IMG/VR virus record: IMGVR_UViG_3300020578_000044
DNA length: 64,000 nucleotides
Source: an uncultured virus (IMG/VR IMGVR_UViG_3300020578_000044)
Taxonomy: Duplodnaviria; Heunggongvirae; Uroviricota; Caudoviricetes
Strand: one strand, 5' to 3'
In this document: positions 17,442 to 63,195 of the stretch, piece after piece
How the letters are laid out: each line of letters opens with the position of its first letter
Numbering within the stretch: the stretch's first letter is position 1
Notes under the pieces: generated by a model
Database searches by the model: none
Told to the model about the DNA's origin: nothing
What the model saw: only the letters and a program-made list of their open reading frames with translations
Position numbers and translations under genes: made by a program

Positions 17442-20400
17442 TTAAAATGAGCTAGCGAGCTGCTGATATGGATCAGACGTCACACTTGGGATCCTATTAT
17501 ACATAGTACTGTTAATCGGTCCATTAGTAAGTCCAGAAGCTGCTTGTTGAAATCTTTCAACATCCTGCCTAGAACCATATAAGGAAACCTTGTAACTCAT
17601 TCCAGAAGCAGATGCCTGTCCACCAATTTGGGGAACAGAAACATTAGAAGTTGGATATCCCTGCTCATAAGCTGATCCACCAGGAAGAAGCGGAGGACCC
17701 GCAGCGTCTTCTGTTGTTTTATCTTTTTTATTTTGATATAAAAAGCTTCCCGCTATCAATAGTCCTGCTGCGATGGCAGTTTTTTGAACAGATGGCTTAG
17801 AAAACTGCTCTGTTAAATAATCCATATCTAAACGTTTAAATTTAGATGGATTTACATTGGATGGAGATTGATCTTCAAGATCTCTCAAAACATTACCAAC
17901 TATACCCTTTGGTTTATCTTTGCGTCCGACGACTTTATCTGCAGATATTTGACCATTCAAAAAATCGTCTATTGCGGGATCCAAAATGTCTCTTTCATAT
18001 AGAGCCCTAGATCTTATGGCATTAGATATGGTTTTTATAGTTTCATCTGTAGTATCTTCCACACCTTTTCCTACAGCTTGACTTAATTGTTGCATGTCGA
18101 TACCTAAATCTGCAAACATTCCAGAAACATCGCCATATTGAGAAAGGTCTAAAGCCCTTTGTTTGGTGTTGCCTTCAATAATATCCGTAAGCAGTAACTC
18201 CCTCGTGGATGATGTGGCGCTAAAGAAATTGTCAACAATATTTTTGACTTGTAAATTTGAAGTTGCCTTTGTGTAGGCTGCTTTATTCCTTTTCGCCATG
18301 TTAAGTCTGGCAAAAAGATTAGCAAATTCTTCATTTGAATCCTCGGTAAGATCAGTTAACTGCTCAAAAACATATGAGCTCATTCCACGATCTGAAGCTT
18401 CTAATTGAAGTGCATTTAATAAATTAAATCCAGTTAAAGGTCTTTGTGATCTAACTTCATCAATTCCTCTTAATAAATTGTCTCCTAATTCAGTTTTTAA
18501 TATTTCAGCTCTTAATCGAGCCTGTTCAAAGCCCATAGATAGCTCTTGCCTTCTGGCAGCATCGATAAACTGTCCATCCTCTATGCCTTCTCTAAATAAT
18601 TTTTGTGCGTCTCTATAAGCTGCATTGGCTTCCATAAGTTCGTCAAAAATATTCTGATTTGCATCTAAAATAGCTTTTGCAGATAATTGTGCTTCAGTAG
18701 CGTTTTTGCCCATGCCAGCAGTAAGCGTATCTCTTAGTTCTTTCATATTATCGCCAAATCTTTTTCTCGCTGCGTTGAAACTATCTTGAGCTTGCTGAGC
18801 AATTTCAATTGTTTTAGAAAGATTACCTCTACCAATAACTCCTATATCTGTTAGGGCCGTTATTATTTTAGCTTTAGAAGGGGCATCTCCGCCTTCAAAC
18901 AGATTCTTTAATTTACTAAGATCTTCATCAGTTTGTATTCCTTCAGCAATCCTAGCCTCAGCGCCCTTTATATAACTCTCAGCAAAAGCTGTAAGGTCAT
19001 CTTTGTTTAACTTTCCAAAATCAATGAGAGCCTTGTCGAGAACAAACTGTTGCCCCCCTCTATGTTGTAGATATCCGAACATTTCCCCATATTGACTCAC
19101 AGCTTCTGCGCCGCTTGTTTCTAGATCAAAATTATTTCCATACATTCTTCTAAAAATATCCATGCCATATCTAGTATCTGCTGCTGCTTCTGCCTCCATT
19201 TTTAATTTCAGTCTTCCAGAAGTAAATGTTTGGGTCATGTCTACTGCGGTTTCCGATGATGGAAAACCTACCAATAGCCCTTTCCCATTGTCATATCGCC
19301 TAAGTGCATCGTTAATTGCTTGATCAGATCCAAAAGCTTTTTCAAATTGAGCCAAACCATCTGCAATTACCGTAGCTCTGTTAACATGCTTACCAAGATT
19401 GTTAGCGTTTTCCGTAGATGCTTTTTCCATGCTTTCAAGATAGAATTTATTAAATGCAATAGCTTTTTTATTTTTATCTAATTGAAAACTATCTAAAGTT
19501 TCACGAAAAGCTTTTGAAGCTTTCTTTATATCTGCCTGTGCCTGTTCTAATGCCGCCAGCTGCACTGGATCATCGTAAACAGAACCAGGTATAAACTGAC
19601 CGGAATATGCCGGACCTTTTAATGCTTGTATCTGATCTCTGATAGCACCTAGTTGCGTTTTTTGCTGATCTGTCATAAGATGCTCATACATCCGATAAAT
19701 ATCATCTTCAAGATTCATTTCCATAACTTCAGTCTTTAACTTTTGAAAGCCAAGGGAAGTTAAGCCCGGATCAACGCCAGCAAAATCAACTAATCTAGAT
19801 CCTGCAAAAAAATCAACTGTACTAGCACCCTGCTTTAGGACGCCTAGTGATTCGAAATATGCTCTATCAAAAGTTCTTGCTTTTCCACCATACAATCTAT
19901 CTCTAACATCTATAATTGTTTCCTCAAGTTCATCTAATAATGCAGACTGATCAATTCGTGTCATTTCTTCTGATGTGAATTTTCCAGATAAATTTTGCTG
20001 TAAAATATTTAATCTGTCTAAGGTTGGAGAACTACCAGAACCTGCCAATTTTTCTTTTTCATCTAAAATCATTTGATCTAAAGTTTTCATAAAATCTGCG
20101 TTATGACCAAATAATTCTTGATAACTTTCTATATCATTAAAGCGAACAAACCCAATCATTTCGCCTGCACCCGTGGGCTGACGAGCCATGGCCATAGCCA
20201 AACGTCTTTTGCCATTAGACATGTAGGTTCCCAAAACTGGTAGCCCTTTGTCGTCAAGGTCGAATCCACCAAGAGCATGGTGGAACCTAATAACATCCCT
20301 TTCGCTCATTAATAAGTTGTGATTAGAAAATCTTACACGAGTTGTACTGAGACTGAATCCTTCATCCATCATTATATTTTGATCAGTCATATCCAAGAAC

Positions 20401-22517
20401 ATTCTGCCACTTGATATACCAATCTGGGTAGATTCTGCGTTCAAAGCAAATCTATACACATCGGGCATTACTGGTAGTGGTATTCCCTTTTTAATCTTAA
20501 AAAATTCTTTTTGAGCAAAATCTATAATTCTATTCATAGCCCTGGGATGCTGATCTAGCGGAATGCCACTTCTATGGATTTCAAGTATCTCTTGCGCCAT
20601 ATTCCTATTCATTAGTTGAGAAAATTGCTGAGTGTCTAATATATCTTCAGATTGGAAATTTGCAGCGCTTAATAGGGATTGATAAAATTTTCCATTCTCA
20701 TCAATCCTATTTGCTTTTAACATCTCGTTAAATTCTTTTTGTAAAGCAAGAGAATACTCTCTACCCAATTGTTGCGATTGTGGCGAACCAAATACTGCTG
20801 CATGAAACGCATCAAGCATAGGATCGGCATAGACTGCACCTTTAGACTCTCCGGTACCAGAAATGTTTAGAATGTCTGTTAAACCAGATATTCTAGTTTC
20901 TCTTTTCGTTGTTGCCTTTGGTGCAATAATAGAATATTTTGTATATCTTCCAGTAAACTCAACACTCATTGCTGCGCCTTTTAGAGAGAATATTCTAGCG
21001 GGGCGCGCTTGATCTCCCGCATCAAAGACAACATTTCCACGAACAGTTATTTGAGACAAGCCCTTAGATTTATCTAATTGGCTCGAGGATCTCTGAATTT
21101 CTCTTTTTTTCAAAAGAATATCTTGTTTTTCTAATCTACTAGTAGCCTGTGCATACTGTTTATCTAATTCATCTATCTCAGATTGATACCCTTTTCGAAT
21201 AGCTTTAGTATAGGAATCATTTATCAACATAGAACCATCTGACCCCTTTTCCATCTCATCAAGTAAAACGTCAATAATGTTAAACTTTTTATCTATTTCA
21301 CTTAAAGCCTTTTCATCGCCAGCTGCACCTTTTTCTAACCTATCTTTCAATAAACCAAGCTTACTTTTCAAAACATCTGTACCATATTTGCCAACAGTAA
21401 TATCTACATCTCCACTGTCTATAGCGTCTTGCATAGCTATCTTTAGATAATTGCCAATATCAGAATATACTTCAGTTTTTATTGGCCCTGGCCCAGTCTG
21501 TCCACGAATTACCTCATCTAAAATTATTTTATAAAAATCCTTAGATCTATCTTGACCCCCAATCATCCAAGAATCTCTTATTCTTTGCGCTGCGTCTGCG
21601 GCTTTTTCTGCATTGTTCATTCCTGAAACATTTTTCAATGTATCAATATCTAGAGCTAACCCCAGTGCCTCAAAAACTGGATCAGTGTTAAGAATTGAAT
21701 CAGCGAATGATAACCCAGGCTTACCAACTTCATCCAATATTGATTCTAGAGCACCACCAGAAACAGAAACCTCTCTTGGAGACAAAACGCCACGCAATCT
21801 TTTATCCAACTTTTGAATTAAAGAAGCTACTTTTTTATTTCCCGACCTCAAAGCGTCCTCTAAAACATCTGGATCTATAGCAGATACATTTGCTGCCTGC
21901 ATCACTTCCAATGTTTGATCTAAACCTAGAACTTGTTTTTTGCCAGCAATTGTCGCAACCAAGTTCAAAGCAATTCCGCCATCATCCGTAGGTAAGAGTA
22001 AACCATAGCCTTTTTGCTTCTGTGCATCAAAAAAGGCTTTTAGCGCTTCAGTGCCCTGCTGAGTATCTAGTCCACCTTTATGAATAGCGATATTCATCTC
22101 TAAAGCTTCTATACCAAAAAGATTTTGCTGTATGGCGACTTTTTCCATATCCCTTAAAACCTGACCATATCCCCTATATACAACGGGGACATCATCTTTT
22201 GATAATCTGTAAACTTCAGTAATATGCAGCGAAGAAAAATATTCTATAGCGTCGTTAACAGAGTTAAATACTTTCCTGCCTTCATCTGGATCAAAATAAG
22301 ATGACCTATATTTTAAAATGTTATCTGCTGGATCGACAAACGGTTCTATTAACCTTTTTTGGCCAGTAGGTATTTTTCCTATTATTCTTCTAGCTGCTCT
22401 AACTTGTTTCTCTGGAGATAAAGGAGACAAGTACGCAGACAAATAGTCGCTAAAGGATTCATACTCAGGAATCTCTTGTCTTCGTTTTTCTAGAAAACTA
22501 GCTATTTTCCCCAACAT
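17442..22517 (-). CDS. Candidate single-subunit double-psi-beta-barrel RNA polymerase, probably virion-associated
   Basis: 1691 aa; GSDGSMLI (aa ~426), QITVRG (R~493), SLKG (K~513), LGGFDLDD (aa ~750-756), ARQP (~779); C-terminal hydrophobic helix. The ORF is certain; the function is inferred from motifs. Confidence 0.6.
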   Translation of the reverse strand: MLGKIASFLEKRRQEIPEYESFSDYLSAYLSPLSPEKQVRAARRIIGKIPTGQKRLIEPFVDPADNILKYRSSYFDPDEGRKVFNSVNDAIEYFSSLHITEVYRLSKDDVPVVYRGYGQVLRDMEKVAIQQNLFGIEALEMNIAIHKGGLDTQQGTEALKAFFDAQKQKGYGLLLPTDDGGIALNLVATIAGKKQVLGLDQTLEVMQAANVSAIDPDVLEDALRSGNKKVASLIQKLDKRLRGVLSPREVSVSGGALESILDEVGKPGLSFADSILNTDPVFEALGLALDIDTLKNVSGMNNAEKAADAAQRIRDSWMIGGQDRSKDFYKIILDEVIRGQTGPGPIKTEVYSDIGNYLKIAMQDAIDSGDVDITVGKYGTDVLKSKLGLLKDRLEKGAAGDEKALSEIDKKFNIIDVLLDEMEKGSDGSMLINDSYTKAIRKGYQSEIDELDKQYAQATSRLEKQDILLKKREIQRSSSQLDKSKGLSQITVRGNVVFDAGDQARPARIFSLKGAAMSVEFTGRYTKYSIIAPKATTKRETRISGLTDILNISGTGESKGAVYADPMLDAFHAAVFGSPQSQQLGREYSLALQKEFNEMLKANRIDENGKFYQSLLSAANFQSEDILDTQQFSQLMNRNMAQEILEIHRSGIPLDQHPRAMNRIIDFAQKEFFKIKKGIPLPVMPDVYRFALNAESTQIGISSGRMFLDMTDQNIMMDEGFSLSTTRVRFSNHNLLMSERDVIRFHHALGGFDLDDKGLPVLGTYMSNGKRRLAMAMARQPTGAGEMIGFVRFNDIESYQELFGHNADFMKTLDQMILDEKEKLAGSGSSPTLDRLNILQQNLSGKFTSEEMTRIDQSALLDELEETIIDVRDRLYGGKARTFDRAYFESLGVLKQGASTVDFFAGSRLVDFAGVDPGLTSLGFQKLKTEVMEMNLEDDIYRMYEHLMTDQQKTQLGAIRDQIQALKGPAYSGQFIPGSVYDDPVQLAALEQAQADIKKASKAFRETLDSFQLDKNKKAIAFNKFYLESMEKASTENANNLGKHVNRATVIADGLAQFEKAFGSDQAINDALRRYDNGKGLLVGFPSSETAVDMTQTFTSGRLKLKMEAEAAADTRYGMDIFRRMYGNNFDLETSGAEAVSQYGEMFGYLQHRGGQQFVLDKALIDFGKLNKDDLTAFAESYIKGAEARIAEGIQTDEDLSKLKNLFEGGDAPSKAKIITALTDIGVIGRGNLSKTIEIAQQAQDSFNAARKRFGDNMKELRDTLTAGMGKNATEAQLSAKAILDANQNIFDELMEANAAYRDAQKLFREGIEDGQFIDAARRQELSMGFEQARLRAEILKTELGDNLLRGIDEVRSQRPLTGFNLLNALQLEASDRGMSSYVFEQLTDLTEDSNEEFANLFARLNMAKRNKAAYTKATSNLQVKNIVDNFFSATSSTRELLLTDIIEGNTKQRALDLSQYGDVSGMFADLGIDMQQLSQAVGKGVEDTTDETIKTISNAIRSRALYERDILDPAIDDFLNGQISADKVVGRKDKPKGIVGNVLRDLEDQSPSNVNPSKFKRLDMDYLTEQFSKPSVQKTAIAAGLLIAGSFLYQNKKDKTTEDAAGPPLLPGGSAYEQGYPTSNVSVPQIGGQASASGMSYKVSLYGSRQDVERFQQAASGLTNGPINSTMYNRIPSVTSDPYQQLASSF

Positions 22518-22519
22518 TT

Positions 22520-25500
22520 TTATCTAACCCCTGCACTTATGTCAATTTGTTGACCACCAAATGGATTCATTACCGGAGTAACAGAACCGCTAACTCCCAT
22601 GCCATTCATTAAAGAGCGCAACCTATATGACACATCAGCATTGGAGTTCGAAGAGTAGTCAAACCGAGGATAACTCGGATTAGCCAAATTAGCTTCTCTT
22701 ATTTGTTGAGGATAGTAACCCATTTGAGACATTTCAAGACCCATGTGCTGACCTATTTTAATCTTAACAGAGTCCATATTTGTATTGGGATGCCAGCCCT
22801 CCCACCCCTCACCGGGAAGTTCGTGTCTACTAAAATAATCTGTTAACTCTGGACGCTTCTCAACAGGCATCCCCCATGCTGCTTCGTATATTCTTCTTTC
22901 TAATCTTCCAGCTGTAGAAAGTATCCTTTCCCTATCTTCTTCTGGAGCATTAATCATTGCCTTAAAATGCTCTCTCTTCCTTTTTGGAATCGCTAAAGAT
23001 AAAGATTCTACATCACTTCCATATTTACCTGTACCAATAGCTTCTATTGGTGCTCCATACATTGTTCTTTTTGCTGCTGATCTAAACTGAAAAGCTGCTG
23101 CTGCGTCTCCGGAAGATTCTGCCATGTTAGCTAACCTTGTATTTTTTACATAACTTAGAATATCAGCATACTCTTCAAGGGCTAATTCCTTTTTTCTTTC
23201 TATTGGTATAAATCTATCTCCAGTTATTGCCTCTTGAAGATTTGCCCCAGTAGAAGCTACTAAACCAGTCGCGGCACCTAGGCCAGACATGACTAATTTT
23301 CCAGGCTGCGTTCTACCTGCAAAGAGTCCGAAAGCAGCTAAGCTTGCAGAAGCAGCTAATGGATTTCTATCTGCAGCTTTGTTAAGCATTGGTTCTATAA
23401 AGCTTTCAAATGGCCTTTGCCATTCGGGGAATGTAGCCCCATAAACATTATTTCTTTCCCAATCTTCTACTGCTGTCTGTTTATTAATAAATTTTCTATT
23501 GATAAAAGTATCTCTGTGAGCAATGTATTCTGCAGCTCTGGATAGATTGTGGACTAATGGATTAGTTCCAGCTTCTTGAGCGGTTTTGCCCACATGACTG
23601 TATTCAGAAAAGCTTTCCTTCTGCTGTATAGATGCCACTCTCTCTCTAATGCTGTCTGCTTGCAGTCTTTCTGATGGATCATCTAAATAGCTGTTAATTT
23701 TTTTATCTAAATATCTATACTGCTTAGAATATGGAGCGACATCACCAAGTATTTTAAACTGATCCAATAAACCATATCTTCCAGTTTCGTCTGAATGTAA
23801 CTGGTTTAATCTTTCATAAGCGACTCCGGGTAAACGCAATTCGCCTTCTTGAACTTTTGTAAAAGGATCTCCCCTAGTAAAATCTAAATAATATTCTGGT
23901 CCTGGCAAAAATGGATACTGTTTGCCCATGGTGTTTTGTATTGGATTAAGGTAATCCACACCAGTTCTTTCTTTTGGTATAAATCTTCTAGTTATTTCGG
24001 AAAATTCTATCGAACCAAAATTTCTTCCACCCAACATTGGAACGTCGCCAAGTCCACCAAGATTATAATCCCAGAACTGCCTACTCATACCGTATGCTTT
24101 AGAGGCAGACTGTAGAACAGCTCTTTGTGGTTCAAAGTCTCCTTGACCATATCCAAAAGATTCTCTGAATGTTGCGCTAGCAAAACCATAGATACCTAAG
24201 GCCTCTTGGGTTCTGTACCCAAATTCTTGAAGCTGCACCTGTGGATCGCTAACTGAAATTGGCGAACCTGCACCAACAATTCTTGGCGGCATCATCCCAG
24301 GAGTTTTTGGTGGACCATATGCCATCTGAGTATACTGATTATTTATTTGACCTATATTTTGCATAGTCGAATATTTAGCAGTATTTAAAGCTCCTGCCCT
24401 GCCTGCCAACTGAGCATTTATTGATGCCTGCATTCCTGGTCCGGGCCCACCAGAAGAAACACCCATTGACATCATAGGCATTCCCCCCTGCGCTGATCCG
24501 CCAATAAAAGCTTGACCAGATTGCTGCTGCGCAGCTTGCCCTGGCAGCATTGGCATGGCTGCTTGCTGCAAATAAGCGCTTGCATCATATGCTCCAGACT
24601 GCCCTGCTGGAGCATAGTTTGATAAGGCTTGGGAAACTTCTTGTTCGTGCATTTTTACTTGAGGCTTTAATACTCTACCCAAAGTGGCATTTAGAGCAGG
24701 AGTTAGCGGACCAAAAGGACCAGAAAAATACTCTCCACTCACAGGATAAGGTCTGTCCTCATAATGTTTTCTTTCAAAACGATATGGATCCAATGGACGC
24801 AGTGGAGATACATCTGTATAAAATAACGCTCTTTCAATAGGTGAACCATACGTGTCAGAAGTAAACATCGACCCTGTTTCAATCTTACGATAAATGCTAG
24901 GCCTATAATACATTATCTTTCCGCCCATAAAAGGCGTATTACCTAATGGCCAAAAACGACCTTGTCTTATGGGTACTTCGCCCTCAAAAAGCTGTTCTCT
25001 TTTTTCTTCATAGCTCATTCCGCCAGGCATAATTCCCGCACCTAATGCATGAACTTCGCCTACAGCTTTTGCGGCAGCGCCAACAAAGAATGGAGAATAA
25101 ACCCTTTCTCCTCTTGCATCTTTTTCGTTTACCATTCCACCAATTGTTCTATCAGCAGTCATAAACGCTAATCCACCGGCATATAGTGGTAATACTCTTT
25201 TGCCTATCATACCTCGCGCAAAAAGATCCAATGGAGAGCCATACTGATTTACGTCTAGTTGCAAACCAACTGTGCCAAAATATTTATTTAATCTTTCCAC
25301 ACCATGAGAAACTGCGGCAGAGAGATTAGAATAATTTTCCGGACTACTATAAGTATTTATCCCTGCAACACTCTTTAATGCGCCTACAGGATTTCTAGAA
25401 AATACGCTACCAAAAGTAGGAACCAATAAAACGTCTGCTCCAGGCCCAGTAGCAGAACCCAGTGGGTCTGTAGCTAAATGAGATATCTTAAACGATGCGG

Positions 25501-29215: not shown

Positions 29216-29228
29216 TTTCTTTCCCTAC

Positions 29229-29858: not shown

Positions 29859-29859
29859 T

Positions 29860-30417: not shown

Positions 30418-30441
30418 ATCTCCTTGAACTAATCATTATAC

Positions 30442-30450
30442 ATTATATCA
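30442..30450 (-). promoter_or_regulatory. Extended -10 promoter element (TGATATAAT)
   Basis: Perfect TGnTATAAT 25 nt upstream of the chaperone start at 30417, in an intergenic gap, with an AAGGAG SD. Confidence 0.6.
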
Positions 30451-30453
30451 TAA

Positions 30454-31455: not shown

Positions 31456-31467
31456 GATATTACCTTT

Positions 31468-48563: not shown

Positions 48564-48590
48564 ATGTGTTCTCCAATATAAAAGCTACTG

Positions 48591-48599: not shown

Positions 48600-48622
48600 C
48601 TCTCTGGATTTTTTTTTATAAG

Positions 48623-49017: not shown

Positions 49018-49021
49018 GATT

Positions 49022-49049
49022 ACTCCTTAAATAGGAGTCTATTATATCA
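49022..49049 (-). promoter_or_regulatory. Extended -10 (TGATATAAT) plus SD-sequestering hairpin
   Basis: Minus strand TGATATAAT-AG-ACTCCT-ATTTA-AGGAGT-AATC-ATG. Confidence 0.55.
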
Positions 49050-50993: not shown

Positions 50994-51931
50994 TATCTAA
51001 GCCCACCTATCTTTGTAAAACTATTATCTATTTGATTTATTAATTCGGTTCCGACTTTAAGATAAAGATTATAGCTAAAAGAATATTTAGATATTTTAAT
51101 ATTATTTCCTCTAGAACCAATATTTTTTTCATATAATACTTCTAGTTCAGCTACGTGATCTTTTTCTTCAAAATCTAATTTTGAAAATAATTCTATATTA
51201 TCTGAAAAACTTGAAGAAAAACAATCTATTGTTTGCCAATCTAATGCAAGCACTGCTGGTGTTTCGGCATTTTGTAATGCTGTAAATTTAATTCTAAATT
51301 TTCCATAGTTAATTCCCTTTGAACCATACAACGTAAACTTTGGCCCAGAAAAATTAATATATAATTTAGATCCGGGTTTATTTGACAAGCCATTGTCCCA
51401 ATCTGTCATTGAATTAATGAAAGAAAAATTATAACTTGAATCTGAATTTAAATTAACTTCATATTGATCTGTTGAAACTTCAGAGTAAAGTCCGCAATAT
51501 GGATTAGGAGGTGATAAATTAACTTGATAATCATTAGTTCCAGCATTATCAACTTCATTAAGCTTTCTAAGATTTGGCGTTGCATAATAAACAAAGTAGC
51601 TACCTTGAATTTCATTTACGGCTGTATGTTCTTCTGCTGTTTCGAAATATATATAGTCTCCATTAATAACTGTTTTAACAGGATTAAAAGTTATACCTTT
51701 TTCATACACAACAACATAAGAATTGGCGTCTTCCAAAGTTTCCAGCGTTGAACTTTTGTATGTATTTATATTTAAATCTTTTATATTTGCAAAAAGCCAA
51801 AAATCAGCAGACAACGTATCCCTGGGTGTAAATTTAGAAATAGCCCTTTTACAGTAGGGATATGAATAGCTATAATTAGGAGTTGCAGAACTAATGCTTT
51901 GATCTAACTTAAAATATTTAAACCACGCCAT
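50993..51931 (-). CDS. Beta-rich structural protein (possible carbohydrate-binding jelly-roll)
   Basis: 312 aa; FSGPKFTLYGSKG..YGKF.I ... IDCF ... H..ELEV pattern. Confidence 0.55.
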   Translation of the reverse strand: MAWFKYFKLDQSISSATPNYSYSYPYCKRAISKFTPRDTLSADFWLFANIKDLNINTYKSSTLETLEDANSYVVVYEKGITFNPVKTVINGDYIYFETAEEHTAVNEIQGSYFVYYATPNLRKLNEVDNAGTNDYQVNLSPPNPYCGLYSEVSTDQYEVNLNSDSSYNFSFINSMTDWDNGLSNKPGSKLYINFSGPKFTLYGSKGINYGKFRIKFTALQNAETPAVLALDWQTIDCFSSSFSDNIELFSKLDFEEKDHVAELEVLYEKNIGSRGNNIKISKYSFSYNLYLKVGTELINQIDNSFTKIGGLR

Positions 51932-51932
51932 A

Positions 51933-55570: not shown

Positions 55571-55572
55571 AA

Positions 55573-57051
55573 TTATCCATAATGCGCAGCCATCATTGCG
55601 CCCTCTGTACCTAGCATGCTTCTTGCGTTTAGTCTAGAATTTTGTATTGCCTGAACACCTCTAGCTCTAGAAGTTGCTGCAGCTTCGGTATCCCTAAAGC
55701 CCATTCCAAATGTTGGTTTGGCTATAGAACCTTGTAAAGATTTATTTGCATCTCTTGTAAAATTGATTCCACTCTTAACTAATTCTCCGCCGAGCCGAGC
55801 AAGGTCGTATGCCAATGATGCTGCAGCGACGACCTGAAGACCGGGCATTGCTAGTGCAGCCCCTCTCATTGCCATCATTCCAGCTGCGCCCTTACCACCA
55901 AGCTTTAATGCTGTCCTTGCTCCAACTTGAGAGAAAAACTTTTCTCCTCCAGTTGATCTAAGAAATGATACCGCTTCGTCTGCTCCTTTTAAAACCTGAC
56001 CACTTGCTAACTTTATTCCATCGTCACCAAAAGATTGAACAGCTTTAGCAAATGCATCTTCTGCTGCCTTTGCACCTTGTGCTGCTCTGCCAACTAATCC
56101 AGGTTGACCACCAAAACCTAGTGCACCACGAGAATATCCGGCTAAATATCCCGTTGCTGCACCCGCTAGAGCAGAAGCTTGAAGATTACCACGAACACCA
56201 AGAGCGCCGGCTCCTGTAGCTGCGTTATATCCCCCTAAGCCAACTGCTGTTTGAGCTGCTGTTTGTCCAGCCGGAGCGACAATTCCCATACCCATACTTT
56301 TAGGTATAATCCGCCCAAACTGTCCACCAGAAACAGTTAAGCCTGCTGGTGAATTTATTCTTAAAAGCGAGGAAGTGGCAGTATCTATTTTTCCAAGTTT
56401 TGCTGCGGCCCGAGAAGATCCTTTAAGTGCTCTTCTTTCTAAAGCGTCTGTTTTAACTCCTGCGGATATGCCGGAAAGCAGTCCTGGACCAAAAGCCTTT
56501 TCTCCTTCAACTAGAGGATTGTTACCTAAAATTTTGCCAGCTAGCCTTTGTCCATGCTTACTGTTCAAGAGCTTATATCCACCAAACATTGAATATGCTC
56601 CAGCTTTTTCTCCAGCAAAAATAGTTTGAGAATGACCTCTAAAGAAAGCTCTAGGATTTGCTGTTATATTATTAACTCTTGAAGATCTTAAAAATGGAGT
56701 TTTTCCTGCAGCTCTAGCGCTAGTTTGTCTTGATGAAGAGCCCATAAAATGAGAATCCATGGCGTCAGACATGTGTCCGCCAACCATAATCCTGTGCTTA
56801 GAAGCTCTTTTGGCTAATCTTTTTTGACGTCTTGCACTTAAAACTTTTTGAGGATCACCAAGATCATCCATGAATCCGCCATACATCATTGTATTTGAGC
56901 CTCTCATGGAACCAAATGCAATAGTTGTACTCAAACCAGGTAGATGTTCCATCATCCTAAAGCCCAAAGGAACATCAGGGGTATCAACAAAAGTTGACTC
57001 GTTTAATGGGCCTATTGACTGACTATATCCAGTTGGATCACCTAAGGGCAT
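55573..57051 (-). CDS. Gly/Ala-rich basic protein, putative internal/ejected virion protein
   Basis: 492 aa; low-complexity Gly/Ala, amphipathic and hydrophobic segments. Confidence 0.55.
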   Translation of the reverse strand: MPLGDPTGYSQSIGPLNESTFVDTPDVPLGFRMMEHLPGLSTTIAFGSMRGSNTMMYGGFMDDLGDPQKVLSARRQKRLAKRASKHRIMVGGHMSDAMDSHFMGSSSRQTSARAAGKTPFLRSSRVNNITANPRAFFRGHSQTIFAGEKAGAYSMFGGYKLLNSKHGQRLAGKILGNNPLVEGEKAFGPGLLSGISAGVKTDALERRALKGSSRAAAKLGKIDTATSSLLRINSPAGLTVSGGQFGRIIPKSMGMGIVAPAGQTAAQTAVGLGGYNAATGAGALGVRGNLQASALAGAATGYLAGYSRGALGFGGQPGLVGRAAQGAKAAEDAFAKAVQSFGDDGIKLASGQVLKGADEAVSFLRSTGGEKFFSQVGARTALKLGGKGAAGMMAMRGAALAMPGLQVVAAASLAYDLARLGGELVKSGINFTRDANKSLQGSIAKPTFGMGFRDTEAAATSRARGVQAIQNSRLNARSMLGTEGAMMAAHYG

Positions 57052-57917
57052 CAGTATCCCCTTCTAGAGTTATGCATTCCGAGAACAATATCTCCACTAG
57101 CGTTCAATGTGCTCTGAGTATTTCTTGTTGTGGAGTATGGCGAATTTTGAAAAAACTCTCTGTTATTATTCATATAAGCTCCGACGCCAAGTGCTGGCAA
57201 AACTACTCCCACGTTTGCCCCAACAAAACCACCAACTAATCCGCCACTAATTTTTCCTATTTTAGATCCAGTTTTACCAAATGCAGAACCTAAAAATGCT
57301 CCAGCTGCTACTCCCATCGTTCCAGTAACTGGACCGGTTGCAGTTCTTGCTGCAACCATAGCGGCACTAAACGTATCTGAATTTATTGGTGGATTCGCAG
57401 CAAAATAATCCCCTGGGGCAGTCGCCTGTAACATGCGTCCACCAACTCCACCCATTAGTGTTCCAGCTAAAAATCTAGCATCTAGGTCTCTTCCAGTAAA
57501 ATATCTATCTGCTTCAGTATCATTAAAAGCTGCTTCAAACGCAGCATCTTTTACAGCTGGACCGACAGAAGAACCAAAGCCGATTGCGCCAGCGCCAATT
57601 GTCACACCAGCTATCCCGGCCCTACTTGAAGCAACTTCGCCTAGGGCTCCCCCTAAACCAGCTGCTGCTCCACGAGCAGCCCTTCCGGTACGGCCTTGAG
57701 CAAAACCTTGAGCTGTTCCTTGTAATTTTGGAATAAGCTCTTCATCTATTCTTTTGCCAACTGATTCAGAAACGTCATCAAACGTTTGCCTTGCTCTGCC
57801 GCGTAAACCAGCTGTTCTTGCAGAAGCTGATGCCCTTTGACTTTCAGCCATTGGCTTTATGGTATCATTAAATAAAGATGTAACTCTTTTACCTAAAGAA
57901 CCCAAATTAACTGGCAT
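57051..57917 (-). CDS. Gly-zipper membrane-like protein, putative ejected protein
   Basis: 288 aa; GxxxG-rich hydrophobic helices (GIAGVTIGAGAIGFG; GGLVGGFVGANVGVVLPALGVG). Confidence 0.55.
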   Translation of the reverse strand: MPVNLGSLGKRVTSLFNDTIKPMAESQRASASARTAGLRGRARQTFDDVSESVGKRIDEELIPKLQGTAQGFAQGRTGRAARGAAAGLGGALGEVASSRAGIAGVTIGAGAIGFGSSVGPAVKDAAFEAAFNDTEADRYFTGRDLDARFLAGTLMGGVGGRMLQATAPGDYFAANPPINSDTFSAAMVAARTATGPVTGTMGVAAGAFLGSAFGKTGSKIGKISGGLVGGFVGANVGVVLPALGVGAYMNNNREFFQNSPYSTTRNTQSTLNASGDIVLGMHNSRRGY

Positions 57918-57919
57918 TA

Positions 57920-60900
57920 TTACTGCCCTCCATAAAGATGATTATATTTATTGTTTCCCATTTTTGTATGTCCAATTTTATTTCTATCTAGATTTCCGAC
58001 AACACCAGCAGTAACCAATGGATCCCTCCTGGAGGAAGGCAACGAAGTCATGGAAGCAGTGTAGGTATTCGTAACACTATTTTGATTATAGTTTTCTAAT
58101 GGTTGCCGTTCAAGTGTTTCGTTATATAAATCTCTTTCTTCTTTTTTTCTAAACAGATAGTAACCACCAGCCATGGCTGCTGCACCCATAGCAATCAAAC
58201 CAGCGTGTGGTTTTATGTTATTGTATATTTCAACACTTTTTGAAATATCTTGCTTTCGAGTTCCAGCTTTAATATTTTGTAAAGCTGTTCTCAGCAGGTC
58301 GTTATCACCAGCAAGTCGTTCTGCTACATCATTAGCACCCTTCAATGAAGATCTAGCAATGGCATTCATATTTCTGGTAAATGTGGTTCCAGCTGGAGCA
58401 GTGGCTCTTGCTGTAGTTTCGTCAAAGAAAAATACTCTCAATAAATCAGTAGAATCATCTATTACATTACCAAGAATTCTATTTCCAGTATCTCTAGTTA
58501 AATCTACTCCCATGGATGAAGCATTTTGAACTAATCTAGCTATTGGGCTATCTACGCCAGTATCTTCTATAAATCCTGCTACAACTCCTCTTTTAGCTAA
58601 AGCTTCTAATTCTGCTACTGCAGACTCTTTACTTTTTTTCTCAAAAAGAACTTTTAAGTTTTCTATTTCAGCTCGCAAACGAGAATCTGGTTCTTTTATG
58701 ATATTCTTATAGTTATCTGTCTCAACAAAATCTTCATATAACTTTTCTGCTATTTTTTTTGAAGTAAGACCAGAATCATCTCTGCCCTCTTGCCAGGTTA
58801 GGTTTAACATATTGTGCACTGTATGTTGATTAGTTTTATCATCTTTTATTGCTGTTTCAATAAAACTAAGAGACATATTAACTTTACCCTCAGCCAAAGC
58901 TTTACCCATATCGGGTATGCTTGGATCTGAAGCTAGTTCAATTGATTTAAAGTACTCATAAGGAAGAATTAGCTTCTTTCCTAAAGATGACTGAGTTTGA
59001 GATTCCATAATTCTCAAAGATGATTGGAATTTAAAGTGCGATACACCAAACTGAGAAACAACATCACCTATCTCTTCAGATGCTCCATATCTCATTGAAG
59101 TTCTGAATTGAGATAAATATGAGTCACTTACACCAGCCTTTGGCTGGGTGCTTAAAGTCTGGAATCTTTCTCTAGCCACACCACCGGTTGCCCTTGACAT
59201 CATATCGCCAAAAGCCAATTCAGTAGGACCTAAGATAGAGTTAGCCATTCCTAAACCAGACATTGTCTGACCATGAGAAACATATTGAGCCAATATCTCA
59301 GAAGAACTGCGTGCATTCATATTGAATCCCATAGAGAACGTTGGTGTTTTTGAGGGATTCATTAAAGAGCGAATTTGCCCAACAACACCCCTGATTGTAC
59401 CAGGTGAATCTCCGCCTATTACCCTGGGATTATCTGCAAAGTTTTCATAAAAATTACCAACATTGTGAATATAAGAATCCACATCTACAGGACTAATATT
59501 TGTTGGCATGCCGATTTGATCTATTAGTTCTTGTGCTATTAGAATATTTGAATTTTCTCTTCTTGTTAAACCCAAGCTCATTATTTGTTTTTCAAATGGG
59601 TTTATTCTTCTCGTAATCGAAGGAGCTGCCCCTTGTGGGGTTAAATTAATTGTTTTGTCATACTGTGTATCTTGAGCTCCTGTAATGACACTTCTTAAAT
59701 ATTCTTTTGCTTGAACCTTATCTAATTCTATTGGGCTTCCTTGTCCAGTGAAAATCTTATACGAACCCTGATCATACTTTATAAAGCCTTTTTCAATATC
59801 TGCACCAAAATCTACACCAAAAGTCTTTTTTGCTTCCTGCGCATCAATCATAATGCTTGTGCTAGCCAGTCCCTCATCTGTTTGTATGTATCTAAGAGCT
59901 GCTTGAGACAACTGTCGCGGATCAGATATGTTTGCTTCTGGTACAATTGCTGAGGACTTTAGCGCTGTTAATCTCGCCATATCTATGATATCTTTAGATA
60001 TTTTTGCACCGGGCTCTTTTGTCTTCGGATTACGAAAATCTAATTTACCCTGATGTATATACTTCAACATGTAGTCCTGCATAATTGTGTCAGTTTCAGC
60101 TACGTGAGAACCTTCAAATATTTTTGCAAAAACCTCAGGCGCATGATCTTCGGCAGCTATTAAATCCAATAGATTTGTATTCATGATGAAGTTTTCCATA
60201 GCGGCATATGTAGCTTTTCCTCCACGAGAAATATCAGCTAAGGTTTCTTCCGCAAAAAAGCTTTTTATAAATCTATCTCCTCTAGCAATAGCATCATCAG
60301 GCGATAAACCTTCAGTTTGCTGAAATAGATTTCTCATATATTGACGACCAATTTCAAGTGTATCTATCATGAAATTGGGATTATTATCTACTCTATCTAA
60401 AAACTTATTAACTACCAGATTAAGTGAAGCATTCTGCTTGTAGCCCCTCATTGACCTAGCTGTATCGAGCAATGTATTTATGTCATACTGAATGTTGTGT
60501 CCAGTAAGAAAATCAACTTCAGATTCATCAGAAAGATAACCAAATAATTTTGTCATCCTTTCCATAAACTCATCTTCATTACCAATAATATTTCCTAATT
60601 TGTCAAACCCTTCTTGCTCAGCTATAAACTGGCTCAAAGTTTGACTATCACTAGCCAGAACACCCGCAAGTCTTGGTGAGTCATACATAAAATCCATGCC
60701 TTCTTCGGCAACCTTAACCATTTTAGCTGCCTCATCCAAACCAGTTCTCTGTATCAAAGAAACAGATCTAGCCTGAGAGCCAAACATTAGTCCAGTAGAT
60801 TCAATGTCTATCGTTGCTATTTTTGAAGTTTGAGTAAAAAGACTTCCATTAGCAATAGCAGATATCTGAGACATGTTTCTTTGTATCTGCGAGGAAGACA

Positions 60901-61432
60901 TGATGTTTTGCGTATTGAATGTCATGTCAGATATAGACTCAGACATAGGGTCAACGTTAAATATCATTTTATTTAAAACTGAAAAAACAGGATGTTCCAT
61001 TTTTTGGTTTATGTCAAACATTAAACCAACTCTTACATCATTAGCACCTTCTGGTAAGGCAATATTGGGGAAGCCAACATTTGATATTAGATCACCCAAT
61101 TTAACAACCTTAGTTCTATAATTAGATATTAATTCTTGTCTTGCCTGATAATTAAAATAAGATAAATCAATTTTACCCATTTTACGAAGATGCTCTACAT
61201 CTACAACGTTTACCATTCCAGGCTTAAGCTTTTCTGGATCAGACAACATCCTGTAATACATATTCTCAAACTCTTTTTGTGACTGCATAAACTCATCTGC
61301 AGTCCCGTATATGCCTGTTGCTGTTTGATCATTTAAGATCACTTCGCCAATACCTTTGTTTTTCTTAAAAGGAAAGGATTGAGTACTTTTGTCGACTAAT
61401 CTAGATAGTCTTTGAAAAAGCTCTTCTGACAT
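57920..61432 (-). CDS. Large protein with DEDDh 3'-5' exonuclease domain and C-terminal hydrophobic anchor
   Basis: 1170 aa; IDIESTGL (ExoI), GHNIQYD (ExoII), IDTL, SHVAETD (ExoIII); AGLIAMGAAAMAGGYYLFRKK near the C-terminus. Confidence 0.8.
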   Translation of the reverse strand: MSEELFQRLSRLVDKSTQSFPFKKNKGIGEVILNDQTATGIYGTADEFMQSQKEFENMYYRMLSDPEKLKPGMVNVVDVEHLRKMGKIDLSYFNYQARQELISNYRTKVVKLGDLISNVGFPNIALPEGANDVRVGLMFDINQKMEHPVFSVLNKMIFNVDPMSESISDMTFNTQNIMSSSQIQRNMSQISAIANGSLFTQTSKIATIDIESTGLMFGSQARSVSLIQRTGLDEAAKMVKVAEEGMDFMYDSPRLAGVLASDSQTLSQFIAEQEGFDKLGNIIGNEDEFMERMTKLFGYLSDESEVDFLTGHNIQYDINTLLDTARSMRGYKQNASLNLVVNKFLDRVDNNPNFMIDTLEIGRQYMRNLFQQTEGLSPDDAIARGDRFIKSFFAEETLADISRGGKATYAAMENFIMNTNLLDLIAAEDHAPEVFAKIFEGSHVAETDTIMQDYMLKYIHQGKLDFRNPKTKEPGAKISKDIIDMARLTALKSSAIVPEANISDPRQLSQAALRYIQTDEGLASTSIMIDAQEAKKTFGVDFGADIEKGFIKYDQGSYKIFTGQGSPIELDKVQAKEYLRSVITGAQDTQYDKTINLTPQGAAPSITRRINPFEKQIMSLGLTRRENSNILIAQELIDQIGMPTNISPVDVDSYIHNVGNFYENFADNPRVIGGDSPGTIRGVVGQIRSLMNPSKTPTFSMGFNMNARSSSEILAQYVSHGQTMSGLGMANSILGPTELAFGDMMSRATGGVARERFQTLSTQPKAGVSDSYLSQFRTSMRYGASEEIGDVVSQFGVSHFKFQSSLRIMESQTQSSLGKKLILPYEYFKSIELASDPSIPDMGKALAEGKVNMSLSFIETAIKDDKTNQHTVHNMLNLTWQEGRDDSGLTSKKIAEKLYEDFVETDNYKNIIKEPDSRLRAEIENLKVLFEKKSKESAVAELEALAKRGVVAGFIEDTGVDSPIARLVQNASSMGVDLTRDTGNRILGNVIDDSTDLLRVFFFDETTARATAPAGTTFTRNMNAIARSSLKGANDVAERLAGDNDLLRTALQNIKAGTRKQDISKSVEIYNNIKPHAGLIAMGAAAMAGGYYLFRKKEERDLYNETLERQPLENYNQNSVTNTYTASMTSLPSSRRDPLVTAGVVGNLDRNKIGHTKMGNNKYNHLYGGQ

Positions 61433-62148
61433 TAGTCGATGTCCTTTGGTGAATCTATTTCAATATAATCATCTTTATCATAAATGCCCAGTTTTTGTTT
61501 AAGAACTTTTTCTCTTTGATTCTCTAAAGACTGAACTTTATAAAGTATATCTGATATAGCTTGAGCGCTATCAAGCTGAGCTTGTCCAACCTTAGCTTTA
61601 GCTTCTCTTGTGGCAAGCAGTTGATTTCTTAGATCTTTTCTACGCTTATGTAATCTGTCTTCCAGTTCTACTGCAAGGTGTAGCTCTTTTTTAAGGATTG
61701 GCTGGCCATCACTATCAACGCCAATAATATTTTCTTGCACAAAATGTTCTTTAGCAAGAAGTTTTGTTTTGCGAATATATTGAACCTCTTGATCAACAAG
61801 ATCTCTAACCATAGAAACTTCAACCAAATTGTCTGGATGAACATCTAGCTGTTCCATGTATTCCTTGGTAAATTGTGCAACTATAGACATTTCTATAGGA
61901 CAGGGCTTTCCGCGTGGTGCTAGATTTTCCTTGAGGAGTGGACATGTGTCTGCAAAAGTGCATTTATGCGCCTCACAATTCATAGGAATAGAAGAAAACA
62001 TGGATGTTCTAGTTTTCTGAGGCCGGACTAATTCAACAGCCTTTTCTTTTTCTTCATCTGTCCAATTGTCAGGAAAAAACAAATCTGGACGCAGGGATTC
62101 AAAATCTTGTAAAAATTTTCCCTTGTCACTCTTTTCTATGTTGCTCAT
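61432..62148 (-). CDS. Cys-cluster/coiled-coil protein, possible terminase small subunit
   Basis: 238 aa; CxxxxCxxxxxCP...CP then long helices (LLATREAK); upstream of terL. TerS call is positional. Confidence 0.4.
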   Translation of the reverse strand: MSNIEKSDKGKFLQDFESLRPDLFFPDNWTDEEKEKAVELVRPQKTRTSMFSSIPMNCEAHKCTFADTCPLLKENLAPRGKPCPIEMSIVAQFTKEYMEQLDVHPDNLVEVSMVRDLVDQEVQYIRKTKLLAKEHFVQENIIGVDSDGQPILKKELHLAVELEDRLHKRRKDLRNQLLATREAKAKVGQAQLDSAQAISDILYKVQSLENQREKVLKQKLGIYDKDDYIEIDSPKDID

Positions 62149-62311
62149 TTAAATCAATCCACTCGCTATCATAGGAGCCATCAGAATGAAATCTTTCTAT
62201 TGTAGCACTTTTGCAGTAAGAACAATACATGTCTCTTGTTAAATATCTTTTTGAGAAATCAAAATATTCAGTTATAACTTGAACCATGCCGTTACATCTG
62301 GGACAATTCAT
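62126..62311 (-). CDS. Zn-ribbon protein
   Basis: 61 aa; CPRC...CSYC. Confidence 0.6.
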   Translation of the reverse strand: MNCPRCNGMVQVITEYFDFSKRYLTRDMYCSYCKSATIERFHSDGSYDSEWIDLNEQHRKE

Positions 62312-62714
62312 CTAGAGCTTTCATTAAACCCTTCTGTAGTTTACTGGCTACTTCTGCATTTTGAATTGCATTATAGAAAATGCCAACTTCTCTAATTTCA
62401 TCAGAGGTTAGATAAGGCGATATCCTGTATCTGGATCCCTTACATATTTCGCAATAAAAATCTTTTTCCTCATTAAAACAAGTGCACTTTTCAATTAAAT
62501 CAAAAAACTCTAATGAATCAGCTATTTCAAACCATTTTGACTTAAACAATTTTTTTGTCTGCTCTTTAAATGCTCTAAGCTTTTGCGGATCATTAGATAA
62601 TAATGTTCCCATATCTAAAGACTGTTTCATCAAATCATTTATTGTCTTATACAAAAAATTTGCTAACTGAAAATCACCATTAACATCTGTAAACTTCTTC
62701 CAATCATTCATCAT
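62292..62714 (-). CDS. Hypothetical Zn-binding protein
   Basis: 140 aa; CTC...CEICKGS. Confidence 0.65.
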   Translation of the reverse strand: MMNDWKKFTDVNGDFQLANFLYKTINDLMKQSLDMGTLLSNDPQKLRAFKEQTKKLFKSKWFEIADSLEFFDLIEKCTCFNEEKDFYCEICKGSRYRISPYLTSDEIREVGIFYNAIQNAEVASKLQKGLMKALDELSQM

Positions 62715-62733
62715 AATTCCTAACTATTATTTT

Positions 62734-63195
62734 TTAATATCTATACATTGACTGTCTTCCAGAGGAAGCGCCTTCTCCTCTTCTGTTCATTGCTACTCCA
62801 GCTGCAACACCAAGGCCAAGACCTATGCCCAAAAGACTTCTTTTACTCATTTTCATCCCCTTAGTAGTAACCGGGGGAACCGAGGGACCGTGCATCATTC
62901 CCGTGTCAACGCCACCTAATTTTGCAGCTGCCTGTCTCATTGATGACTGCCTTGCTCTTGCTGCATCAATTCCAGCCATTCTCTTTGGTGTCATAACTGT
63001 TCTTTTTGCATCTCTTGCTGACCCCGGTGCATTCGCTGGATTAAAACCTGGCAAAAAGGGTTGTCGCGGTCTTGATGGGCCCATGGTTACTGGAACTGGC
63101 CTTCTTGCTCGTGCATTTCTTGCAGCGGCGGAATGTGGCCCGACCATTGGCCCTCTCGTGGGTGTTTCAAATCCTGGTAATTGCATTTGTGGCAT
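62734..63195 (-). CDS. Basic disordered protein with C-terminal transmembrane-like helix
   Basis: 153 aa; Arg/Pro/Met-rich; LLGIGLGLGVAAGVAMNRR. Confidence 0.65.
   Translation of the reverse strand: MPQMQLPGFETPTRGPMVGPHSAAARNARARRPVPVTMGPSRPRQPFLPGFNPANAPGSARDAKRTVMTPKRMAGIDAARARQSSMRQAAAKLGGVDTGMMHGPSVPPVTTKGMKMSKRSLLGIGLGLGVAAGVAMNRRGEGASSGRQSMYRY

Follow-up and report, generated by a model that had tools for sequence, protein, structure and literature searches.

The question raised by this locus is whether the similar C-terminal ends of three otherwise unrelated phage proteins constitute one signal, and what such ends do for the proteins that carry them. The DNA concerned is a stretch of 64,000 nt (the window), corresponding to bases 26740-90739 of a single 179,608-bp contig (IMG/VR record IMGVR_UViG_3300020578_000044), from an uncultured contractile-tailed phage of about 180 kb; all the open reading frames (ORFs) of note in the window are carried by the minus strand. 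The proteins are a protein of 1691 amino acids (aa), an exonuclease of 1170 aa and a basic protein of 153 aa, named P0001, P0002 and P0003, respectively. In each of them, the initial annotation had described a Gly/Ala-rich hydrophobic stretch followed by basic residues near the C-end, and had interpreted the three as a common signal for capsid loading and ejection, or for tail-anchoring into the host membrane. The three peptides were found in the places where they had been described, two end coordinates being corrected to 58204 (58205 given) and 62779 (62776 given). The proteins and their segments are the following.

17442..22517, minus strand: P0001, 1691 aa, occupying the tape-measure slot and having a conserved core that is RNA-polymerase-like
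17724..17780, minus strand: P0001 Gly/Ala-rich hydrophobic segment and basic residues (residues 1580-1598)
57920..61432, minus strand: P0002, 1170 aa, with exonuclease body, C-terminal helix and invariant tail
58142..58204, minus strand: P0002 Gly/Ala-rich hydrophobic segment and basic residues (residues 1077-1097)
62734..63195, minus strand: P0003, basic protein of 153 aa
62779..62835, minus strand: P0003 glycine-zipper segment and basic residues (residues 121-139)

The coordinates of protein parts other than these three segments were derived by hand from residue numbers and, outside the program gene lists, the ORFs are those of a crude ORF caller (207 genome-wide).

From their comparison within and between families, the segments appear to be three independent, family-specific C-terminal modules, each provided with a conserved tail of its own. 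The reading that we tentatively prefer, at a probability of roughly 0.45, is that the proteins are particle-borne, and that their small-residue zipper helices would be docked inside the virion and, during infection, act upon the membrane of the host. This is reasonably secure for P0001, while for P0002 and P0003 we infer it only.

Every segment consists of 17-20 uncharged residues with Lys or Arg on both sides and a Gly+Ala content of 35-50%, and is followed by 95 (P0001), 76 (P0002) or 16 (P0003) further residues. Taken within this one genome, the pattern has little weight. With a loose definition, namely a single uncharged hydrophobic stretch in the C-terminal part and Lys or Arg after it, 12 of 146 ORFs of at least 100 aa had the feature versus 7.2 ± 2.5 in residue-shuffled proteins, a difference that is not significant. 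When a Gly+Ala content of at least 35% was added, in a definition set post hoc and applied to ORFs from the crude caller, 6 of the 146 ORFs were retained versus 0.37 ± 0.59, and the number of 6 was reached in 0 of 300 shuffles. The segments were judged to be real because they are conserved in homologues, and here the check that had been proposed for them gave a strongly positive outcome. In the P0001 family (n = 16, down to 24% identity) 16/16 members retain the segment together with its basic residues, and also a Pro/Gly-rich motif and a short conserved terminal domain, with the tail being more conserved than the protein body and nearly identical in a relative of 62% identity. In the P0002 family (n = 85, down to 23% identity) no window of the last 200 residues is more hydrophobic than the segment in 83 of 85 homologues, where it starts 87-99 residues from the end; the other two show it in the alignment, and all the 33 rows aligned, out of the 85, have it. 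In the P0003 family (n = 62) the N-terminal part is variable, basic and of low complexity, and only the last 35 residues or so, i.e. segment and tail, are conserved, being near-invariant in 62/62.

These data bear on the simplest alternative, namely that the likeness is a coincidence of composition, with ordinary low-complexity Gly/Ala stretches occurring in three unrelated proteins. The count obtained with the loose definition, and the lack of detectable homology among the three modules, agree with it. Neither of them accounts for the fixed distance of each segment from the C-end in families that are otherwise 23-25% identical, nor for the 6 ORFs observed versus 0.37 expected under the Gly/Ala criterion. 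Coincidence is largely refuted by the conservation evident in the aligned families, and we consider it highly improbable.

Conservation within families does not extend to likeness between them. When hidden Markov models (HMMs) of the three modules were run against the six-frame translation of the genome, each matched its own gene only, with no cross-match between modules (cross E values of at least 3.9), and the tails are wholly different; therefore, the likeness is architectural and compositional and there is no homologous tag. The initial interpretation is supported in part: the segments are conserved, as it required, while a common signal is not supported. The tails are as follows.

17445..17723, minus strand: P0001 conserved C-terminal tail, a Pro/Gly-rich motif followed by a short conserved domain (residues 1599-1691)
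57923..58030, minus strand: P0002 near-invariant last 36 residues (residues 1135-1170)
62737..62778, minus strand: P0003 conserved 14-residue tail ending in aromatic residues, nearly invariant in 62/62

In P0002, residues 1133-1166 contain 12 invariant and 13 nearly invariant columns, compared to a mean column identity of 30% in the alignment. A phmmer search with its last 105 residues against 1.84 billion representatives (of 50%-identity clusters) returned 259 proteins at E ≤ 0.001. Among the 150 matches listed, the match to the module runs to the C-end, and the protein lengths are 43-1413 aa, mostly about 950-1250, the short ones looking like fragments; among these matches, the P0002-type module is confined to the C-end of the P0002 family, and otherwise it was found at the C-end of short proteins at the same locus.

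The numbers of residues left after the segments (16, 76 and 95) imply that these are not at the extreme C-end, which bears on tail-anchoring. The three segments resemble tail-anchored proteins and sortase or exosortase signals in being single hydrophobic stretches close to the C-end, with basic residues after them; they differ in that their hydrophobicity appears too low and that they are followed by conserved, family-specific tails. Membership of the tail-anchored class requires a single segment within about 30 residues of the C-terminus and no signal peptide, and the position of the segment excludes P0001 and P0002; the tail-anchoring proposed initially would fit, by position, P0003 alone. 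A sortase, exosortase or rhombosortase sorting signal was ruled out by the geometry, as conserved tails of 14-93 residues come after the basic residues.

Concerning the hydrophobicity itself, the Kyte-Doolittle maxima over 19 residues were 1.23, 1.16 and 1.29 for P0001, P0002 and P0003, and did not reach the usual cut-off of 1.6. On the Hessa biological scale, in a simple sum with scale values not supplied by a tool, the best 19-residue totals were +6.4, +4.8 and +6.0 kcal/mol, which rank 50, 32 and 45 among 203 ORFs, and 18 ORFs of the genome gave +1.5 or lower. The segments are marginal, and by both measures they lie below the cut-offs usual for classical membrane anchors, in which about 19-21 residues are hydrophobic enough for insertion by the translocon. 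Small residues (Gly, Ala or Ser) recur in them at positions i, i+4 and i+8, with a periodicity that varies by family: two complete series in P0003, one (A-G-A) in P0001, and a partial one in P0002. In P0003, the two small-xxx-small series are interleaved (positions 1, 5, 9, 13 and 3, 7, 11), with a small-residue fraction of at least 0.9, and this looks like the arrangement in glycine-zipper helices, which form oligomers by packing together.

With such properties, the helices might never be in a bilayer and might act as protein-protein zippers during assembly, by engaging tail chaperones or an Hsp100-like ATPase, or by bundling in the tail tube or the head. Several observations are in line with this: the marginal hydrophobicity together with the high Gly/Ala content; the near-invariance of the helix sequence, which is more than a plain anchor requires; and the linkage to the gene cluster described below of a ClpB/ClpV-like ATPase, detected in 46 of 76 related loci together with a Cys-rich protein of 140 aa (g140). 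In addition, a study of the lactococcal phage TP901-1 (PMC5099701) favoured chaperone recruitment for the hydrophobic regions of its tape measure. Yet the occurrence of Lys or Arg on both sides of 17-20 uncharged residues is the usual signature of a membrane span, and similar stretches are known to reach membranes, as is the case of N4 gp51/gp52, which integrate into lipid membranes (PMC13434306), and of the tape measure of Thermus phage P23-45, which is drawn with membrane domains. We consider it unlikely that the role of the helices is confined to contacts of this kind.

The assignment of the proteins to the virion starts from P0001 and its surroundings. Terminase, portal, HK97-type capsid, sheath, baseplate J and tail fibres were recognised in the window with Pfam and PHROGs. 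The portal shares 28-40% identity with its counterparts in Bacillus phages 0305phi8-36, Edson, WH1 and KLEB27-3, Moorella phage MTATph1 and Acinetobacter phage ME3, and the structural modules are collinear with those of 0305phi8-36, as judged by BLASTP versus 44 of its proteins. The matches include the sheath, two tube paralogues, the tail chaperonins gp143/144, gp145, the hub gp147 and gp112, plus gpV-like, gp149, gp150 and gpJ-like baseplate proteins, capsid, protease/scaffold, portal and terminase. From this gene content the phage can be classed as a 0305phi8-36-like myovirus. The parts of the tail module that matter here are these.

5820..16976, minus strand: baseplate-hub homologue (gp147-like), 3718 aa, with Gly-rich hydrophobic stretches (BLASTP 2.9e-24; PHROG 20474 at 8e-121)
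20028..20450, minus strand: P0001 stretch with a D-x-D-D loop and an R-x-P motif (residues 690-830)
22520..29215, minus strand: gp145 homologue, 2231 aa, with internal Gly/Ala hydrophobic stretches (BLASTP 1.7e-48, 4.9e-29 and 1.8e-20)
23315-23362, minus strand: example of such a stretch in the gp145 homologue (residues 1952-1967)

P0001 is placed between the gp145 and gp147 homologues, downstream of two tail chaperonin homologues (gp143/gp144), one 148-aa ORF intervening before the hub gene. In the order of 0305phi8-36 this is the position of the tape measure gp146, and a position between tail chaperone and hub genes is a criterion for tape measures. By gene order, then, the slot of P0001 appears to be that of the tape measure, in which a distal hydrophobic helix would be an expected feature. 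A Gly/Ala hydrophobic stretch is located some 135 residues before the end of gp146 in 0305phi8-36, and another at residues 4905-4931 of the 5002 in P23-45 gp96; internal stretches similar to those of the window are found in gp145 and gp147 of 0305phi8-36 and in CDS26 and CDS32 of the Moorella phage. An AlphaFold2 (AF2) model of the last 332 residues of P0001 gave a mean predicted local distance difference test (pLDDT) score of 56, too low for a fold search, with the segment helical and the tail mostly coil. A by-eye alignment of the P0001 tail to that of gp146 was dropped, since the HMM did not support it, and the module HMMs gave nothing significant against the 44 proteins of 0305phi8-36.

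The naming of P0001 as an RNA polymerase is plausible, judging from its conserved motifs. The D-x-D-D loop and the R-x-P motif about 25 residues later are both invariant in 16/16 members of the family; the canonical D-x-D-x-D metal loop that two-barrel RNA polymerases of the P23-45 gp96/QDE-1 type have in a double-psi beta-barrel is absent, the loop of P0001 being one residue shorter in 16/16.

More general searches returned little. Versus 50,697 phage records, tblastn with P0001, P0002 and P0003 gave zero matches; Pfam, PHROGs and NCBIfam gave nothing for the three; profile searches versus PDB sequences gave nothing for the P0001 or P0002 family; and the ESM Atlas scores (0.80-0.81) were at chance level.

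For P0002, the label of exonuclease given in the initial annotation was borne out by the catalytic motifs and by a fold match. The domain in question is the following.

60041..60841, minus strand: DEDDh 3'-5' exonuclease domain of P0002 (residues 198-464)

The residues of Exo I (D-x-E), Exo II (N-x3-D) and Exo III (H-x4-D) are all present, and at D209, E211, N313, D317, H443 and D448 the conservation is complete or at least 90% in 47 aligned homologues. Residues 198-464 of the model aligned in VIA-align with Z 9.0-9.7 to the DinG exonuclease domain, 3'hExo, Pol III epsilon, ExoI and TREX1 (167-190 residues aligned at a root-mean-square deviation of 3.8-4.5). Foldseek added weak support, a TREX1 homologue with probability 0.99 and E 0.028, and nothing in it matched the whole 1170-residue model at E ≤ 0.001; in the wide VIA search the exonuclease domain alone was resolved, and the remainder of the P0002 body was barely covered. 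Motifs and predicted fold together confirm the putative identity of P0002 as a DEDDh (DnaQ-like, RNase H-like fold) exonuclease.

The AF2 model of P0002, built on a 47-sequence alignment, had a pLDDT of 79 and a predicted template-modelling (pTM) score of 0.80, with a confident body up to residue 1060 or so. Helix 1063-1100, which contains the segment, projects from the body unpacked, with pLDDT < 50, and the tail is without secondary structure. A predicted helix that projects in this manner and an unstructured tail would fit a part that needs a membrane or a partner. A complex prediction between P0002 residues 1055-1170 and the product of the adjacent gene g238 gave a score of 0.00, which is no verdict, neither for nor against binding.

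In diverged relatives of the phage, two or three small basic proteins (63-134 aa) take the place of the single P0003 gene. Each of these combines a C-terminal Gly/Ala stretch with a conserved short tail that ends in aromatic residues and is of one of two or three kinds. Judged by these tails, P0003 seems to be one of two or three types in a family of small paralogues. Examples of the replacement are found at these loci.

L031:7596-8550, L041:4973-5518, L054:7918-8561, L083:7984-8549 and others: small basic proteins in place of P0003

A role of P0003 as a holin or spanin was rejected, as a separate likely lysis cassette exists and the P0003 gene is fixed in the packaging cluster. The cassette is at genome 116228-117908 (L017:12229-13909) and comprises two SLT/lysozyme-like proteins whose hydrophobic stretches are N-terminal, along with a protein of 178 aa in which several segments are strongly hydrophobic.

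The genes of P0002 and P0003 belong to a cluster of the leftward late string, just before the large terminase, with the following neighbours.

63212..64000 (C-terminal part, the gene running on to genome 91360; L016:952-2361), minus strand: AAA+ protein of 469 aa, similar to the second ATPase domain of Hsp100 proteins (ClpB/ClpA/ClpV)
62292..62714, minus strand: g140, Cys-rich, 140 aa, 60-96% identical across the tabulated related loci
61432..62148, minus strand: g238, gp112 homologue, 238 aa (BLASTP 1.1e-21), whose stop overlaps the P0002 start
57051..57917, minus strand: g288, Gly-rich protein of 288 aa at the gp114 position, with a hydrophobic stretch at residues 226-246 (57180-57242)
55573..57051, minus strand: g492, Gly/Ala-rich protein of 492 aa at the gp115 position, with a hydrophobic stretch at residues 397-415 (55807-55863)
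53714..55570, minus strand: large terminase (Pfam, PHROG), downstream end of the cluster

The gene junctions with the terminase string are tight and overlapping. The Hsp100-like ATPase is the first gene of the string; it matches Pfam AAA_2 and ClpB_D2-small, and NCBIfam ClpB (1.3e-92) at profile positions 546-852, and is a single-ring type with a unique 130-residue N-terminus. In related loci its gene was detected immediately before those of the small zipper proteins, on their upstream side. A weak match of g288 was to the Pfam glycine zipper 2TM family. As to g238, no other protein of the cluster is so well conserved (about 80% identity across the clade, in loci where the P0002 body has about 25%); it has four conserved cysteines, and may be the small terminase or another packaging factor. 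Its homologue in ME3 is much longer, with an extra part read as an intein-like insertion.

The conservation of this arrangement was followed in a scan of IMG/VR with the P0002 family alignment, which yielded 225 relatives, of which 80 loci were kept and 76 were examined. The terminase is downstream of the exonuclease gene in 76/76 loci; a g492-like gene was found in 72 of them and a g288-like gene in 57 (BLASTP, 1e-4), and a g238-like gene is directly upstream of the exonuclease gene in 50 of the 51 loci whose upstream DNA extends to 1.2 kb or more. In all the 46 loci where both the Hsp100-like ATPase and g140 were detected, one to three small ORFs occur between them, at least one of which has a C-terminal Gly/Ala stretch and then Lys or Arg. 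Expressed as ORFs with this feature over total small ORFs, the loci are distributed as 1/1 in 16, 1/2 in 14, 2/2 in 12 and 3/3 in 4. The cluster is, then, widespread and conserved, and brings together an Hsp100-like ATPase, small basic zipper proteins (one to three), a DEDDh exonuclease whose tail is invariant, two Gly-rich proteins and the terminase.

The same locus was recognised in cultured phages. In 0305phi8-36, MTATph1, KLEB27-3, Edson and ME3 the gene order is gp112-like, X, gp114-like, gp115-like and terminase, X being the protein at the position of P0002. In searches of a 19-sequence database, the g492 profile matched MTATph1 CDS252 (2.5e-10), KLEB27-3 gp009 (2.2e-9) and Edson 1130 (1.3e-8), and that of g288 matched KLEB27-3 gp008 (1.1e-8) and Edson 1140 (9.8e-6). 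In Bacillus phages, X is a protein of 194-257 aa. KLEB27-3 gp006 (257 aa) and Edson 1160 (194 aa) have the exonuclease-type helix and tail without the exonuclease, and the HMM of the P0002 module matched them, in the same database, with 3.2e-6 and 0.009, respectively; these short versions of the module were recognised from the syntenic locus, after tblastn had missed them. In Acinetobacter phage ME3, gp11 (529 aa) combines motifs of DEDD type with a Gly/Ala stretch at the C-terminal end. Since X is short and devoid of exonuclease in the Bacillus phages and of DEDD type in ME3, the C-terminal module looks like the older, fixed element, to which the enzymatic body would be an addition. With gp113, the X protein of 0305phi8-36, tblastn returned 0305phi8-36 itself only. 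According to the notes of GenBank EF583821, gp113, gp114, gp116, gp145 and gp146 of 0305phi8-36 were found in virions by mass spectrometry. By analogy with gp113, gp114 and gp116, we infer that P0002 and P0003 would be carried in the particle.

The same type of C-end occurs on two proteins encoded outside the structural module.

Genome 93411-94871 (L016:4412-5872), plus strand: 486-aa protein adjoining recA, with a C-terminal Gly/Ala stretch and then basic and acidic residues
Genome 170717-172321 (L021:10718-12322), minus strand: 534-aa Pro/Thr-repeat protein among glycosyltransferases, with the same C-end type

This end is kept in relatives of 64-90% identity for the 486-aa protein and of 76% for the 534-aa protein. 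Another protein, of 641 aa (genome 167871-169796, L021:7872-9797), has an N-terminal signal-like stretch, a PA14 domain and long Thr/Pro runs, and its hydrophobic stretch and basic end are at the extreme C-terminus, so that it resembles a true cell-surface sorting signal more than the three segments do.

Several points weigh against a particle-borne function acting at infection. The two non-structural carriers are not structural proteins, so the feature is not confined to candidate virion proteins. P0002 and P0003 are placed in the virion by gene position, and the correspondence with 0305phi8-36 is weak at some of the positions: the g288-gp114 link gave E 0.002 in the 19-sequence database and 0.046 in BLASTP, and the similarity of gp113 to the exonuclease module was not significant. 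P0001 had no BLASTP or HMM match to gp146, and its ESM Atlas score of 0.81 to a tape-measure cluster equals chance; this missing similarity weighs little, because tape measures diverge fast (PMC2147016). The P0001 core, compared with P23-45 gp96 (N-terminal 1150 residues) and with 0305phi8-36 gp99, gave hhalign probabilities below 1%. From the literature, the hydrophobic regions of the TP901-1 tape measure may, in the conclusion of its authors, serve chaperone recruitment and not membrane insertion. Heads of T4 and SPN3US assemble on the inner membrane (PMC9026906), so late anchors encoded beside packaging genes would also be reasonable. Finally, SNIPE, a membrane-bound host nuclease, is described in bioRxiv 10.1101/2025.11.03.685801 as cleaving phage DNA during injection and associating with tape measure proteins.

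The last two systems set a precedent for a different function, in which the proteins would be anchored, unpackaged, in the membrane of the producer cell, either to tether head assembly or packaging, or for the exonuclease to destroy the injected DNA of competing phages; SNIPE provides the example of a membrane-bound nuclease that acts on incoming DNA. The geometry of P0003, with 16 residues after the segment, is tail-anchor-like and the terminase gene and the highly conserved g238 lie beside the genes, which would suit such anchoring, as would the presence of the same C-end on the two non-structural proteins. However, 76 and 95 residues follow the helix in P0002 and P0001, unlike in classical tail anchors, and the three segments fall far short, in hydrophobicity, of the 18 clear membrane segments found elsewhere in the genome. 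Moreover, the fixed place of the exonuclease gene in the late structural string (76/76 loci) is unusual for exclusion genes, and positional counterparts in 0305phi8-36 are present in virions. Anchoring in the producer cell seems to us rather doubtful.

The preferred reading, with particle-borne proteins whose helices reach the membrane of the new host, could operate as follows. A membrane activity after ejection is the role that has been proposed for tape measures, whose distal helix and tail are usually the working end, and that has been shown for podovirus ejection proteins (N4 gp51/gp52). The distal helix and tail of P0001 would be held at the hub inside the tail tube and expelled on contraction; this end would then enter the cytoplasmic membrane and line the path of the DNA. 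If the P0001 core is an RNA polymerase, as in P23-45 gp96, the enzyme might reach the entry site tethered by its C-end. The zipper helices of P0002 and P0003 would stay soluble or chaperoned in the producing cell and, after ejection, would oligomerise and insert in the host membrane, while their invariant tails would dock them to a conserved partner. The marginal hydrophobicity fits such a course, because proteins of this kind must avoid the membrane of the producer cell. The proposal of the initial annotation that enzymes are tethered at the site of DNA entry is possible.

A bolder form of the same reading can be envisaged, namely an injected, pre-assembled and membrane-tethered complex made of a tape-measure-slot RNA polymerase, the DEDDh exonuclease and one to three small basic proteins, each of them held in the host membrane by its own zipper helix. 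The phages injecting it would be a large, uncultured clade of 0305phi8-36-like myoviruses. The Hsp100-like unfoldase would keep them soluble and load the particle, the 36-residue tail would be a loading and docking handle, and the exonuclease body would be swappable, this last because it is absent from the short versions of the Bacillus phages and present in ME3. We regard this whole scheme as speculative and improbable in its full extent.

How contractile-tailed phages pass their DNA, and sometimes enzymes, through the cytoplasmic membrane after piercing the wall is poorly understood, and injected enzymes are known for few phages only. An injected exonuclease would add a new class to the cargo of phages; were it not injected, the cluster would point, in this lineage, to head assembly or packaging tethered to the membrane. 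The presence of parts of the cluster in the cultured phages ME3, KLEB27-3, Edson and 0305phi8-36 makes the idea directly testable.

Concerning the remaining genome, it encodes RecA, SSB, RNR, ThyX, a WhiB-like factor and many glycosyltransferases. The gene of the WhiB-like transcription factor (genome 131473-131922, L018:12474-12923; Pfam 2.9e-11) is a hint that the host may be an actinobacterium. Also encoded, at genome 159318-160793, 165531-167732 and 151813-153006, are a homologue of tryptophan halogenase (Pfam 1.4e-100) and two proteins with collagen repeats.

In relation to known systems, membrane segments of tape measures and of ejection proteins are already known kinds; what is added here is the C-terminal modules, including an exonuclease fused to a conserved, locus-specific C-terminal module. 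The phage 0305phi8-36 (EF583821; PMC2147016) is alike in the gene order around the terminase and tail module and in having several virion proteins with Gly/Ala-rich hydrophobic stretches, and differs in that gp113 has 194 aa and no exonuclease domain and in that the similarity of the small proteins is weak or undetectable.

P23-45 gp96 is a tape measure fused to the virion two-barrel RNA polymerase, with hydrophobic 'transmembrane' regions, and is the tape measure drawn with membrane domains mentioned above (PMC10770324). Both gp96 and P0001 are giant proteins that occupy the tape-measure slot and carry an acidic loop of polymerase type, and gp96 has a Gly/Ala hydrophobic stretch about 70 residues from its C-end, compared with 95 in P0001. 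The differences are that P23-45 is a siphovirus, and that gp96 has 5002 residues, an N-terminal polymerase and a canonical DFDGD loop, whereas P0001 has D-x-D-D and then R-x-P; there is no detectable sequence similarity between them, and P0001 is without a metallopeptidase domain (no Pfam match).

Tde1, a DNase of the Agrobacterium type VI secretion system, carries GxxxG repeats that permeabilise the target cytoplasmic membrane and are needed for entry (PMC10240207). It is alike in being a nuclease delivered by a contractile machine and provided with a glycine zipper. It differs in that the zipper is N-terminal, the nuclease belongs to another family, and the protein is a bacterial toxin and not a phage protein.

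The podovirus ejection proteins, such as T7 gp14-16 and P22 gp7/20/16, are another term of comparison. They differ from the proteins studied here in belonging to short-tailed phages and in showing no sequence or fold similarity to them, the sole Foldseek row for a pre-ejectosome having a probability of 0.08; no exonuclease is among the ejection proteins named in the abstract of PMC13434306. Such proteins, as described there for gp51/gp52 of N4 with the virion RNA polymerase gp50, are kept inside the particle and leave it ahead of the DNA or along with it; they integrate into host membranes and form a transient conduit on which the virion polymerase becomes active. By analogy, the podovirus ejection proteins may be taken as the closest working model for the early-infection complex that the initial annotation had envisaged.

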